Virus record (IMG/VR): IMGVR_UViG_3300028597_000007
Strand: one strand, 5' to 3'
Length of the DNA: 64,000 bases
Origin: a virus
The position numbers and the translations under genes are program-made. The number at the start of each line of letters is the position of its first letter. Positions within the stretch are counted from its first letter, which is position 1. Shown piece by piece: positions 7,409 to 57,065 of this stretch. A model generated the notes under the pieces. The model was not told the DNA's origin and searched no databases. It saw only the letters and a program-made list of their open reading frames with translations.

Positions 7409-7842
7409 TGGCAAAAATCATCTGTGCGTTTCATGGTACCGGACGTGTTCGGCTGTTCCACCATCTGCGCCAGAAGAAGGGCATGGACGTGGTGCTGGTT
7501 GGTGCTGGTTTCACCGACGCTGCATCGCTTCTTTGTGAGTACGGCAATGCCGATGTCATTATTGCTCCGGCAACTCCAGAACTGGTCGATAGCCTCGATC
7601 TGATCTGCGAGGACTTTGATCTGGTATACCCAGACCCTATGCTTTCGCCCAGTATGTTTACCACGGCAATGGCATTGGACGGCATGCAGTTGCAACAGAT
7701 CCACCGCGCCATCCACAACTGGCGTACGGATCTGCAAAAGCTACAAACGTTCCGCGATACCAATGTAAATCACATCGTTCTCGACGAGGGTCAAACCTTG
7801 CTCGACACCCATGGGATCAATAAAGATGAACAACGTAGTTGA
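7408..7842 (+). CDS. P-loop kinase-like protein with a degenerate Walker A
   Basis: IICAFHGTGRV resembles IxxAFPGTGKS; DLVYP and NW motifs typical of this small phage family (recall). Confidence 0.55.
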   Translation: MAKIICAFHGTGRVRLFHHLRQKKGMDVVLVGAGFTDAASLLCEYGNADVIIAPATPELVDSLDLICEDFDLVYPDPMLSPSMFTTAMALDGMQLQQIHRAIHNWRTDLQKLQTFRDTNVNHIVLDEGQTLLDTHGINKDEQRS

Positions 7843-18414: not shown

Positions 18415-19467
18415 GTGACTCGTAAAGTAAACATTCTGGCTTGCGGCGGCTTTGGCCAAAACATGATGCTGGCTCTGTCCACTCGCCCCCTCTTCGAATC
18501 GATCAAGGACTCCCTGAACCTGGTCGCGTTCGACACCTCCGAGTCCAACCTCAAGCGCTTCGCTGGCTCCGCCATCGAGAAGCAGGTCAAGAAGGTGCTG
18601 GTCGAAAAGGCCGACGGCTCCGGCAAGCGTCGCGCTGAAAACCACGAAGCCATCACCGCCGTTGCCACCGACTTCGTCAACGACAACGGTGTCGAAAACG
18701 GCCTGGTCATCATCGTGTCCTCGGCCTCCGGTGGTTCGGGTTCGAAGTTCGCTGACGACCTGCACGAACTGCTGGCCAAGCGCGGCCATCGCGTGATCTC
18801 CATGATCCTGGGTACCGACGAGGACTCCGAGGCTCTGGGCAACACCGTCAAGACCATCAAAACCTACCGCCACAAGGCGAGCCTGTCCGACAAGAACTTC
18901 GCCATGTTCTACGGCCAGAACCGCTTCCCGGTCGAAGGCGAGGAAGGCAAGACCTACATCGACGAGGCGCGTGCCGACGAGCTGTTCGTGACCAACCTGG
19001 AAGACATCATCATGATCGGCCATCCAGGCAACGACACCCTGGACACCATGGACCAGCTGCGCTTCCTGAACTACCGCACCGACGCTGAAGGCGGCCTGAA
19101 GGGCCAGGGTCAGCTGCGCTTCCTGTCGCTGATTTCCCGTGGCGAGAAGGAAGACTTCCCGGACGATGAAGATGCCCCGGTATCGGCGCTGTCCCTGCTG
19201 TCCAAGCGTGGCGTTACCCCGCAGTTCCCAACCGGTACCGGCTACTCCACTCGTGGTTACCTGTCCGATGGTCTGACCTTCACCCACGACACCGTGGAAG
19301 TCCAGTACCAGCTGTTCTCCGGCCGTACCGGCAAGCTGGCCAACCAGCTGGCCAAGCAGCAGAAGCTGTACGACGATATCCAAGCCAAGCAGGCCCAGGC
19401 CAGCTCTGGCGACGAGATCAAGCGCAGCGAGCGTGATGAGCTGAGCGAATCTGGCAGCTTCCTGTAA
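18415..19467 (+). CDS. phuZ: PhuZ phage tubulin
   Basis: ACGGFGQN T1 loop, SASGGSGS tubulin signature, acidic-hydrophobic C-tail; GTG 18415 after AAGGAG; extreme codon bias. Confidence 0.95.
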   Translation: MTRKVNILACGGFGQNMMLALSTRPLFESIKDSLNLVAFDTSESNLKRFAGSAIEKQVKKVLVEKADGSGKRRAENHEAITAVATDFVNDNGVENGLVIIVSSASGGSGSKFADDLHELLAKRGHRVISMILGTDEDSEALGNTVKTIKTYRHKASLSDKNFAMFYGQNRFPVEGEEGKTYIDEARADELFVTNLEDIIMIGHPGNDTLDTMDQLRFLNYRTDAEGGLKGQGQLRFLSLISRGEKEDFPDDEDAPVSALSLLSKRGVTPQFPTGTGYSTRGYLSDGLTFTHDTVEVQYQLFSGRTGKLANQLAKQQKLYDDIQAKQAQASSGDEIKRSERDELSESGSFL

Positions 19468-19474
19468 TACCCGC

Positions 19475-19522
19475 GCATGGGGCTGGCCTTCGGGCCAGCC
19501 TTTATGCCCCATCTTTTTTTTT
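19475..19522 (+). terminator. phuZ terminator
   Basis: GGCTGGCC-TTCG-GGCCAGCC-TTTATGC and a long T tract. Confidence 0.9.
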
Positions 19523-19552
19523 TGTTAAACTAAACAAGGGGATGTAATGTAT

Positions 19553-19654
19553 TGAGGTCTCTGCAGATACGGTCAGGTGTCTGCCCCGGTTGTCACGGTC
19601 CGGGTTGATTTCAGGCATGACTCCATCGCCTCCCTTCGGGGAGGTTTTTTTTTT
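19553..19654 (+). ncRNA. candidate small structured RNA (three-way junction) with its own terminator
   Basis: Three helices (19553-59/19607-13, 19563-70/19577-84, 19585-89/19600-04) between two terminators; no ORF. Confidence 0.5.
19629..19654 (+). terminator. intrinsic terminator
   Basis: CCTCCC-TTCG-GGGAGG followed by T10. Confidence 0.9.
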
Positions 19655-19679
19655 GCCCTAATTTCGAAGGATGCCCCAA

Positions 19680-20048
19680 ATGTCCTATATTCTCAGCAGC
19701 AAAGCCAACACCATTTTCAACCTGCGTTCGCTCATTACCGCCCCCATGATCCAGTCCCAAGTGCTGGTCAGTGTCTACCCGGATGGCAGGGTCCAGGCAG
19801 TGCTGTCCTATCAGGGCATCGTGGTTGAGCAGCCGGACGAGCGCCAGGACACCGACGAAACCCTGTACGCTGACGACATCCGTCAGCAGTACGCACAATT
19901 CGATGTTATCCAGGACGGCCTGCTGGACGTCGGGGTGGGCAACACCCATCGCATTGCCATCACCGAACACTCCCTGGAAAACGAGATGTTCGCATTCATC
20001 CCCATGACCATCCAGCCAAGTACCCACTTCGACGCCGGTGAAGAGTGA
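19680..20048 (+). CDS. hypothetical protein
   Basis: RBS AAGGA; tiled with the next genes. Confidence 0.75.
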   Translation: MSYILSSKANTIFNLRSLITAPMIQSQVLVSVYPDGRVQAVLSYQGIVVEQPDERQDTDETLYADDIRQQYAQFDVIQDGLLDVGVGNTHRIAITEHSLENEMFAFIPMTIQPSTHFDAGEE

Positions 20049-33540: not shown

Positions 33541-33544
33541 GGAA

Positions 33545-33725
33545 TTCGGCAGACGCCTCCTAGGGGGGCGCCTAGCTGGATAGCTGTTGGTTGACCTAAA
33601 ACAAACTGCGTCATTCGGGGGTGGCTCCTCATTGGGATAAATCGACCGACAGCGAACAGGATGCAACGAAAGCCGCTTAGCCGAAGGCTAGGCAAAGATC
33701 ATGGGTAGGCTGCCCAGTTGTATCC
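33545..33725 (+). ncRNA. candidate structured RNA or 3' element between chmA and its terminator
   Basis: 12-bp helix 33583-94/33642-53, 9-bp helix 33659-67/33717-25, plus internal hairpins; no credible ORF. Confidence 0.5.
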
Positions 33726-33777
33726 GGGTATAGCCGCCCTCCGGGGCGGCTTTACTTATGCCCCAATTTACTTTTTA
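33726..33777 (+). terminator. chmA terminator
   Basis: GCCGCCC-TCCG-GGGCGGC followed by TTTACTTATGCC and T-rich sequence. Confidence 0.8.
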
Positions 33778-33791
33778 TGGGAGATTAGGCG

Positions 33792-37200: not shown

Positions 37201-37253
37201 ATGAGGGCGGCCTTCGGGTCGCCCTCATTTTTATGACGTATCTTTTTTTTTTG
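37201..37253 (+). terminator. intrinsic terminator
   Basis: ATGAGGGCGGCC-TTCG-GGTCGCCCTCAT and T tracts. Confidence 0.85.
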
Positions 37254-37267
37254 TCTCGGAGTAGACC

Positions 37268-50758: not shown

Positions 50759-50798
50759 GCCCCCTCTTCGGAGGGGGCACGGCTCCCTGTATTTTTTT
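50759..50798 (+). terminator. intrinsic terminator
   Basis: GCCCCCTC-TTCG-GAGGGGGC with a downstream T7. Confidence 0.8.
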
Positions 50799-50814
50799 GT
50801 GAGGGAGATAGCGA

Positions 50815-53375: not shown

Positions 53376-53435
53376 CGGCATAGCTGCCCCTCCCCGCAAG
53401 GGGAGGGGCAGTGAGCCTATGCTCTTTTTTTTTTG
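53375..53435. terminator. bidirectional terminator with GGCATA/TATGC flanks
   Basis: CTGCCCCTCCCC-GCAA-GGGGAGGGGCAG and a T tract. Confidence 0.9.
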
Positions 53436-56174: not shown

Positions 56175-57065
56175 ATGGCAAATGGCAAGAGCGGCGCGTT
56201 CGGTAGCCGCAAAGGTATCAAGACTCCAGCGGTCATGGTTCAGGGAAACCAGCTGCGTGTGGCAAAGGACCCAGCCCCATGGTTCGCTGACTTCGACTCG
56301 CTGGCGGCACAGTGCACCGCACTGACCACCTCCCCGGCAATGATCATGCCGTACTTCGGCGACGCCGAACTGATGGCCAAGATCGACCGTCAGGGCGTTA
56401 ACGATGCCACCAAGGCATTGATGGAACAGATCAAGCAACAGAAAGAACGTCTGGCTGCACTGGTTGCTGAGACCAAGGCCATGCGTGAAGGCGTCCCGGC
56501 CATGGACGGCAAACCTGCTCGTGCCCCGATCACCAAGGTCACCCAGGACAACACCATCGAGCTGCTGAACCACGGCGAGCAGTTCCAAACCTTCATGGAT
56601 GACTGGCTGCGCATCATCTACTTCTCCATGGACAAGGTGCTGGACTTCTTCCGCGCCCTCGGTCAGGACATCCCGGTACTGTGCCCTTACAGCCAGGGCT
56701 TCGTGAAGACCGAGCAGAACATGACCCCAGAAGAGCTGAAGGCGGCCTCCGGTGCCAGCCTCGACGAGCTGGCCGCAGAAGTCGCCGAAGAAGATCACCT
56801 GGGCAAGATGATCCTCGGCGTACTGCAGGCAGCACCGCTGAAGGCGCACCAGCGCAAGGCCTTCGCCAAGATGATCGAGGTCACCCCTGAGCAGTTCAAC
56901 AAGCTGATCAAGGGCGACTACCGCCAGTTCTCCCTGACCAAGCTGCGTTCCATCCATGAGAAGATGGACGGCCCTGCCTACGAGCAGGAACTGGCAGCTG
57001 TCGAGCAGACCGAACTCCAGCAGATGGCAGAAGCTGCCGAATCCACCACTCAAAAGGTTGAGTAA
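56175..57065 (+). CDS. abundant coiled-coil protein with a C-terminal XRE-like HTH
   Basis: AHQRKAFAKMIEVTPEQFNKLIKGDYRQFSLTKL; RBS AAGGA; strong codon bias. Confidence 0.75.
   Translation: MANGKSGAFGSRKGIKTPAVMVQGNQLRVAKDPAPWFADFDSLAAQCTALTTSPAMIMPYFGDAELMAKIDRQGVNDATKALMEQIKQQKERLAALVAETKAMREGVPAMDGKPARAPITKVTQDNTIELLNHGEQFQTFMDDWLRIIYFSMDKVLDFFRALGQDIPVLCPYSQGFVKTEQNMTPEELKAASGASLDELAAEVAEEDHLGKMILGVLQAAPLKAHQRKAFAKMIEVTPEQFNKLIKGDYRQFSLTKLRSIHEKMDGPAYEQELAAVEQTELQQMAEAAESTTQKVE

Follow-up and report, generated by a model that had tools for sequence, protein, structure and literature searches.

The window analyzed here, a 64,000-nucleotide stretch of DNA, is part of an IMG/VR viral record (G000) of 140.7 kb that is about 51% complete. 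Its + strand carries the gene for the tubulin PhuZ, followed by an intergenic gap and a small gene (Table 1). The start of phuZ was set at the GTG codon by comparison with 350-aa homologues beginning MTRKVN, and the Shine-Dalgarno (SD) sequence AAGGAG precedes it; the longest open reading frame starts at ATG 18376, but both the homologues and the SD favor the GTG instead. In relatives with 53-60% PhuZ identity, ATG is used at the position of the start codon. Among cultured phages, the nearest relatives of this PhuZ come from jumbo phages of Erwinia, Klebsiella and Ralstonia, with an identity of only about 27%. No Pfam or PHROG match was obtained for the product of the first downstream gene, and the next proteins of the window behaved likewise, leaving three downstream proteins without a family.

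A search with the PhuZ protein returned 13 close homologues (53-99% identity), and the contigs are designated L004-L015, L028-L030 and L023-L025. The comparison covered the phuZ loci of about 11 metagenomic jumbo phages related to this one, with PhuZ proteins 53-87% identical. Within the gap, the original prediction had placed a stand-alone structured RNA between the phuZ terminator and a second strong terminator. The stems, loops, TGAC tract and terminators that it listed are all present, and the three-way junction is the minimum-free-energy fold. The gap had also been described as free of open reading frames, and comparison of the homologues revealed none that is conserved on either strand. 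Two coding readings were rejected. A 38-codon open reading frame of the window on the minus strand, starting opposite CAT 19616-19618, is broken by stop codons in L004, L006, L009 and other loci, which have no conserved peptide in common. A translated leader mini-ORF (AUG-UAU-UGA, with an SD-like GGGG upstream) begins with AUC in L028 and AUA in L015, and several loci have no SD.

Table 1. Coordinates of features at the phuZ locus, elsewhere in the window and in related loci
Feature	Position	Strand	Details
phuZ (tubulin PhuZ)	18415..19467	+	350 aa; stop codon 19465-19467; PHROG 4733, E 1.3e-34
phuZ terminator	19481..19523	+	hairpin 19481-19488/19493-19500, tail TTTATGCC, T10 run 19514-19523; read from sequence
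Invariant 5' flank	19545..19555	+	TAATGTATTGA; overlaps start of P1; contains GU↓AUU
Three-way junction	19552..19614	+	∼63 nt; minimum-free-energy fold (ViennaRNA) and covariation
P1	19553-19559/19607-19613	+	TGAGGTC/GATTTCA, plus U19552-G19614 wobble; read from sequence
P2	19563-19570/19577-19584	+	GCAGATAC/GTGTCTGC; loop GGTCAG
P3	19585-19589/19600-19604	+	CCCGG/CCGGG; loop TTGTCACGGT (RNA: UUGUCACGGU)
Linker, single-stranded, CU-rich	19615..19627	+	GCAUGACUCCAUC; 13 nt; family consensus RGCACUU..ACUCC
Intrinsic terminator of the RNA	19628..19654	+	7-bp GC stem 19628-19634/19639-19645, UUCG loop, U10; terminator scan
First downstream gene (MSYI...)	19680..20048	+	122 aa, no family; ORF list; SD GAAGGA 8 nt upstream
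Early-promoter-like sites	4826, 8833, 9154, 15457, 21506, 29525, 31467, 41522, 46552	+	two more in G000 beyond the window
T8-T10 runs	19514-19523, 37250-37260, 50795-50801, 53424-53433, others		after terminators
Small-gene insertions between phuZ and the RNA	L011 4116-4532; L014 4100-4591; L015 4106-4555; L012 4173-4888		one or two genes each

Fold of the RNA in the window

The interval 19540-19660 folds at -47.3 kcal/mol (z = -3.1), a value reached by 0 of 200 shuffles, and the junction alone gives z = -2.1, with 4 of 200 shuffles as good (ViennaRNA). Given these z values and shuffle counts, the single window sequence only modestly beats chance, and the decisive evidence for the predicted fold is comparative. 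Loop 2 comprises 6-7 nt, GGUCAG(G), and loop 3 comprises 9-11 nt. The strands that join the three helices are short and variable between homologues (UCU/UC/A, 0-1 nt and 0-2 nt; 0-3 nt overall). Counted from AAUGUAUUGA, the predicted transcript would be ∼105 nt long; a start at the TATG within the phuZ terminator would lengthen it to as much as ∼150 nt.

The TGAC at 19618-19621 of the window had suggested a pseudoknot with the GUCA of the loops. This pairing does not hold across the family: TGAC is confined to the window and L014 (L009 has UGAU) and is missing in L004, L006, L007, L011, L013 and L028, the last two of which also lack GUCA in loop 2. A kissing interaction between the two loops was rejected on similar grounds, their complementarity not being conserved among homologues.

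Relatives, distribution and covariation

In L004/5, L006, L007, L009/10, L013 and L028/9, the gap after phuZ measures 183-216 nt and contains a recognizable copy of the RNA. A covariance model (R1), built from seven sequences and a hand-drawn structure, matched 10 distinct loci at 43-115 bits, with a single copy in each complete or near-complete genome. The RNA follows phuZ directly in 7 loci and lies one inserted gene further downstream in 3 (L011, L014 and L015; inserted products of 138-163 aa), where R1 scored 46 bits (E 1e-9), 43 bits and 26 bits, respectively. The L011 copy has the full junction, both loop motifs and one compensatory change in P1. The copies in L014 and L015 retain the P1 base, both flanks, the linker and the terminator, and their interior is different. 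At the equivalent position, the genome G003 carries a different structured unit.

Covariation in relatives had been named as a test of the original prediction, and it was found. In the model-fitted alignment of 10 distinct sequences, 91.8% of cells were standard pairs, and 15 of the 28 pairs had undergone compensatory change on both sides. These values were matched by 0 of 500 shuffles, and controls with slid partners were 32-57% paired. P1 was 94% paired, its variation consisting mostly of G-U/A-U/G-C exchanges with one double change; P2 and P3 were 94 and 86% paired, with 4 compensatory pairs each; and the stem of the RNA's terminator was 100% paired, with compensatory changes in 5 of its 7 pairs. 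Given that a fitted alignment leans toward its model, the count was repeated on a plain, unfitted MAFFT alignment of 7 sequences, which was 86% paired and had 4 compensatory pairs in P2 (matched by 0-2 of 500 shuffles). G-U pairs are frequent, at about 12% of cells, which assigns the fold to the RNA of the + strand. The covariation of the three stems in relatives thus argues for the discrete structured RNA with a dedicated terminator that had been proposed.

It could be supposed that the gap holds only tandem terminators and spacer DNA that folds by chance, with no separate function, and the z of -2.1 for the junction of a single sequence, modestly above shuffles, would suit that view. It is scarcely credible, since each of the three stems shows compensatory changes, the loops are kept across phages with PhuZ proteins only 57% identical, and the RNA is kept even in L011, L014 and L015, where the terminator ahead of it is absent. 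That the gap holds a genuine, conserved and structured non-coding RNA belonging to a new family is given a probability of about 90%.

The RNA diverges somewhat faster than its neighbor (57-73% identity versus 68-86% for phuZ DNA). Its flanks are exchanged while it stays in place: phuZ or an inserted gene lies upstream, and the MSYI gene, a Sequestin-domain gene or another gene lies downstream. The original reading had recognized no known family, and the Rfam search bears this out, with no match even at E ≤ 10; in Rfam 15 no family came near its gathering threshold, the best scores being those of STnc100 (18 bits versus 47) and anti-hemB (15 versus 49.5), both driven by the terminator, and five relatives searched at gathering thresholds gave no match. 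When the RNA was compared by blastn with 50,697 records of cultured phages, including phiKZ-like Pseudomonas phages such as PhiPA3, the terminator part alone matched. A model of the three-way junction only (R2) had no match in Erwinia phages pEa_SNUABM_54 and PhiEaH1, Ralstonia phage RP12 or G003. A protein-based search of IMG/VR returned only three relatives of the clade. Pattern scans returned five stretches among metagenome contigs, namely one copy of the L007 version and four chance matches in coding DNA, and two among viral contigs, both from relatives already known. On present data, the predicted RNA family is confined to one uncultivated clade of PhuZ-encoding (chimallivirus-like) jumbo phages.

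Conserved sequence elements

Four elements are fixed in sequence: the 5' flank AAUGUAUUGA, loop 2 GGUCAGG, loop 3 UCACGG and the 3' side UCAAGCACUU..ACUCC. Within the flank, 9 of 10 homologues have AATGTATTGA unchanged, irrespective of upstream context, and L028 has AATCTATTGA. Loop 2 is replaced entirely in L013 and L028. The linker motif GCACUU..ACUCC is unpaired in all predicted folds, spans 10-16 unpaired nt among relatives and is kept even in L014 and L015.

The flank TAATGTATTGA was considered as a general promoter word and rejected, being unique within the window, not enriched as a word in non-coding DNA and unable to satisfy the early-promoter matrix described below. As a -10 element it would put the transcription start within P1, in conflict with the covariation. 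A resemblance of GGUCAGGU to a strand of domain IV of 4.5S/SRP RNA was also discarded, with no SRP match in Rfam and the partner strand missing.

Terminators and promoters

Recurrent intergenic elements of this phage are of three kinds: an early-promoter-like word, a GC hairpin followed by (Y)TTATGCCGTCA, and a T8-T10 run. The word, AACCTAAATTATC-N4-TGAA (TCAGAACCTAAATTATC-N4-TGAA), is present in 11 copies at 28.6-39.4 bits, the next best score in 140 kb being 16.6. All TCAGAACCTAAATTATC-N4-TGAA copies lie upstream of + strand genes, and the motif fits the early promoters known from phiKZ-like phages, which are AT-rich, centered on -10 and used by the virion RNA polymerase. Upstream of the RNA, the best score of the matrix was -16.7 bits, compared with at least 28.6 bits at the 11 true sites, and no sigma-70-like site was found. 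The AT-rich promoter proposed for 19523-19552 is thus not borne out, the T run there being a recurrent appendage of terminators.

Units of GC hairpin plus (Y)TTATGCCGTCA number 39 in G000, 59 in G002 and 62 in G001, against about 4 expected by chance. They equal the experimentally mapped phiKZ terminator motif, BCCYCCCC..GGGRRGGBYTTATKYYGT (PMC10914365), which extends this signal to the distant clade of G000, G001 and G002; the phuZ terminator, T run included, is a standard example. The TATG after such hairpins was also considered as a late promoter and rejected: given that hairpin+TTATGCCGT matches the phiKZ motif and is present on both sides of bidirectional hairpins, it was treated as a terminator. 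The hairpin-embedded TATG equals the phiKZ late-promoter core, and a dual terminator/promoter role is conceivable. The T8-T10 run, followed by G, lies 10-15 nt past many terminators and 3-15 nt before the SD of the next gene, and might serve as a further termination element, enhance translation as a U-rich sequence or form part of a promoter.

The terminator of the RNA itself is non-standard, with the U run directly after the stem (U10 in the window, U6-U12 in relatives). A U9-U12 run in this place is close to unique in genomes with 39-73 phiKZ-type terminators (hairpin+TTATGCC). Hairpins followed directly by T≥6 occur once in G000, where the single case is the RNA's terminator, and three times each in G001 and G002, versus 46-73 of the TTATG type. 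In L013, L028, L015 and L012, the RNA ends instead in a terminator with the ordinary TTTTTTATGCC tail, as at usual gene boundaries. The terminator in the window exemplifies a switch from the usual phiKZ-type to a poly-U terminator for one special transcript.

The gene island downstream of phuZ

The gene that follows the RNA is MSYI in L004, L007, L009 and L011, other genes in L006 and L013, and a PF21825 gene in L028, L012, L014 and L015. The PF21825 protein, Sequestin, blocks Thoeris by acting as a sponge for 3'cADPR (bioRxiv 10.1101/2025.07.12.664507). Of the genes that separate phuZ from the RNA, two have a recorded Acb2/Tad1-hairpin match in Pfam; in the Pfam run performed here, PF21825 was confirmed for L028 and the Acb2/Tad1 match was not reproduced. 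Judged by gene content, the interval after phuZ behaves as a putative hotspot for exchange of anti-defense genes, in which PF21825 genes come and go downstream of the RNA.

A second non-coding unit was observed at 33664-33759 of the window (within 33541-33791), between two large genes. It contains a three-way junction closed by GGATGCAAC/GTTGTATCC, followed by a short linker and a standard terminator, a layout like that of the RNA after phuZ. Given that R1 scores just 18 bits on it, this unit probably represents a separate family; a similarly weak match lies in G001 at 56564-56668.

Proposed function and rival explanations

A short RNA that ends at its own terminator is probably released from this locus. 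How it would then act is much less certain, and a trans-acting, base-pairing regulator with an Hfq-type 3' end, either a stand-alone or a 5'-UTR-derived phage sRNA, is proposed tentatively, at somewhat short of even odds. In enterobacterial sRNAs, an unpaired stretch followed by a GC hairpin and a long 3' U tail forms the established Hfq-binding module. The RNA has such an end (a U tail of at least 6-7 nt and an unpaired region before it), which is exceptional for G000-G002. In the proposed mechanism, the RNA would be released as a short transcript and act in trans as a regulatory RNA, with the junction as the scaffold on which the conserved apical loops GGUCAGG and UCACGG are presented. The linker beside the poly-U terminator would form the Hfq-type 3' module, and the loops, together with the anti-Shine-Dalgarno-like linker (ACUCC), would reduce the translation of mRNAs by pairing with their ribosome-binding regions. 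The 5' end may be set by transcription initiated within the phuZ terminator or continuing past it, or alternatively by cleavage at the conserved GU↓AUU just ahead of P1. This site, at the 5' edge of the fold, matches the RNase E consensus RN↓WUU, and given this match and the invariance of AAUGUAUUGA irrespective of upstream context, processing of the 5' end is a reasonable guess. A precedent for such units is found in jumbo phage 201phi2-1, where 8 of 11 sRNAs derive from premature termination in 5' UTRs and a start site is soon succeeded by a termination site (PMC11512511).

The sole candidate target seen is the phuZ ribosome-binding region, and it is a weak one. In the window, loop 3 (GUCACGGU) is fully complementary to ACCGUGAC, a sequence that covers the GUG start codon of phuZ; for L014 and L015, pairing is predicted instead between the conserved linker and the SD region of phuZ, GGAGAAAGUGC. 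Each phuZ translation initiation region (TIR) was compared with its own dinucleotide shuffles. The predicted pairing was significant in L014 (-16.6 kcal/mol, p 0.007) and L015 (-14.4 kcal/mol, p 0.005) and borderline in L006 (-11.8 kcal/mol, p 0.06) and L009 (-9.8 kcal/mol, p 0.03); L004 gave -9.4 kcal/mol (p 0.15). In the loci with an AUG start, which lack significant pairing, values of -6.1 (L011, p 0.17), -5.8 (L013, p 0.33) and -6.4 kcal/mol (L028, p 0.54) were obtained. The figures for the window and L007, -7.2 and -6.9 kcal/mol (p about 0.3) with automatic choice of segments, leave out loop 3, which is predicted to be partly paired and was therefore not chosen. The phuZ start changes from GUG to AUG without a matching change in loop 3, and complementarity to phuZ is not family-wide. 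Given that the match between loop 3 and phuZ was noticed after looking, its significance is inflated, and it is to be read as a lead rather than a result.

Prediction of duplexes between the whole RNA and all TIRs gave only meaningless long-range pairings. In a search for loop-complement words near start codons, CCUGACC was found in the 5' UTR of the PHROG 3196 gene in G000, G001 and G002, where it could pair with loop 2 over 7-10 bp with no compensatory change. This CCUGACC, at L063 735-765 (G000:C1 about 7734-7764, outside the window), lies in a 30-nt spacer between the conserved, divergent PHROG 3196 and PHROG 3239 genes; its opposite-strand sequence, GGUCAGGAG, is the SD region belonging to the divergent gene.

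The main rival is that the structured RNA is a cis-acting 5' leader of the variable gene set downstream, which in relatives includes anti-defense sponge genes. Transcription from the phuZ side would meet the junction and the strong terminator, the short RNA would be a by-product of premature termination, and downstream expression would depend on regulated read-through, either at a factor- or ligand-dependent attenuator or by a put-like RNA that renders the phage polymerase terminator-resistant. The layout is consistent with such a role: a same-strand gene with its own SD always lies 20-45 nt past the RNA's terminator; in the window, where this distance is 25 nt, and in L004, L006, L007 and L009, no promoter-like sequence intervenes, which would suit a stand-alone gene equally well; and the genes directly 3' of the RNA in L028, L012, L014 and L015 encode Sequestin. 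The 201phi2-1 precedent, with 8 of its 11 sRNAs arising in 5' UTRs (PMC11512511), points the same way. The reading is nevertheless doubtful: no antiterminator pairing is conserved. When the 3' arm of the terminator is withheld, 6 of 10 sequences still have the junction as their minimum-free-energy fold, and the alternative folds of the remaining 4 are unlike one another; junction and terminator are separate modules. The downstream gene varies, which leaves no gene-specific logic; the terminator tail is an ordinary TTTTTTATGCC in L013, L028, L015 and L012; a U10 tract makes a poor leaky attenuator; and junction strands of 0-3 nt are too short and variable for a ligand pocket at the junction.

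Somewhat less probable again is a role in protein binding, as a decoy, sponge or scaffold for a host or phage protein, possibly an immune sensor in view of the sponge genes nearby. The arms show related loop motifs, (G)UCA(C)GG, and the P1 base with its bulged A (UGU-A-UUGA/UCAA-GCA) would offer a second surface. Stems that covary freely while loops and P1 base stay fixed in sequence are the pattern of an RNP RNA, and sequence-conserved loops on a covarying scaffold of several helices are seen more typically in RNAs that bind proteins or ligands than in simple base-pairing sRNAs. L014 and L015 keep the P1 base, flanks and linker while the interior is replaced, and the RNA heads an island with Sequestin-domain genes and, in relatives, genes with the recorded Acb2/Tad1-hairpin match. 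Against this, none of the genes tracks the RNA in its presence or absence, L013 and L028 have an altogether different loop 2, no likeness to known protein-sponge RNAs is seen (GGA motifs as in CsrB/RsmZ are not conserved, and Rfam gave no Y RNA, 6S or SRP match), and the Acb2/Tad1 match did not recur. The suggestions of a tRNA-like decoy against anticodon nucleases or a self-cleaving ribozyme, both made originally, are very improbable. The three-way shape with its 7-8-bp closing stem, and a GUUCGAUUCC-like stretch in L014 alone, would be compatible with them, but ARAGORN found 0 genes in the window and Rfam no tRNA or tmRNA even at E ≤ 10; the fold has no fourth arm, D arm, T-loop consensus or CCA, loop 2 lacks U33 and loop 3 the UUCRA motif. 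Nor was any self-cleaving family (hammerhead, twister, twister-sister, pistol, hatchet, HDV) matched in Rfam at E ≤ 10, and junction strands of 0-3 nt that are not conserved make a hammerhead-type core impossible.

A more specific idea, and a quite speculative one, is that the RNA, rather than regulating by base pairing, is a counter-defense decoy for a host RNA-sensing immune protein, or a put-like polymerase-modifying element at the head of the variable anti-defense island. If true, it would be the first counter-defense or polymerase-modifying RNA of nucleus-forming phages, and in the put-like form the non-canonical phiKZ-type RNA polymerase would run through its own terminators.

Whichever role applies, few RNAs of nucleus-forming jumbo phages are backed by more than a transcript peak, and the RNA described here has covariation and conserved loops. 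It occupies a fixed place beside phuZ and a fast-changing gene island with, in relatives, sponge genes for immune signals. At ∼105 nt it is a compact object for studying how these phages use RNA, be it in timing, control of the PhuZ spindle or counter-defense. It is previously undescribed, and its submission as a new RNA family would be possible.

Comparison with known RNA systems

Aptamers of the purine-class riboswitches share with the present RNA their size, the P1-P2-P3 layout and a terminator that follows. By contrast, their junction strands comprise about 3-8 conserved nt rather than 0-3, and the RNA here has loops that are not mutually complementary, no antiterminator and no Rfam match. 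The put RNAs of phage HK022 act on the host RNA polymerase and have no enclosing P1. Like the present RNA, they place two adjacent stem-loops of a phage transcript ahead of a terminator and of genes dependent on read-through, with no call for an alternative pairing; the two are not linked by any match in sequence or model. To our knowledge, no put-like elements have been described for phiKZ-type polymerases.

The proposed base-pairing regulator has a counterpart in the Hfq-dependent sRNAs of Gammaproteobacteria, including those cut by RNase E from 3' UTRs, which have the same GC hairpin, long U tail and unpaired stretch before it, and whose conserved short single-stranded elements are possible seeds, as those of the RNA here may be. 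The body of such sRNAs is one or two simple hairpins, whereas the RNA described here is a covarying three-way junction. Finally, the sRNAs of the PhuZ-encoding jumbo phages 201phi2-1 and phiKZ (e.g. sRNA005, upstream of gp277/gp182; PMC11512511, PMC10914365) are likewise short non-coding units. No sequence similarity to them was found by blastn among the 50,697 phage records, where only the terminator matched, and sRNA005 precedes a tail gene whereas the present RNA follows phuZ. The phage sRNAs were mapped by ONT-cappable-seq and share a predicted fold; the RNA here is known from sequence alone, and its covariation is far stronger support than such a likeness in fold. In both cases, a terminator lies just ahead of a gene, and position and fold are conserved among relatives.
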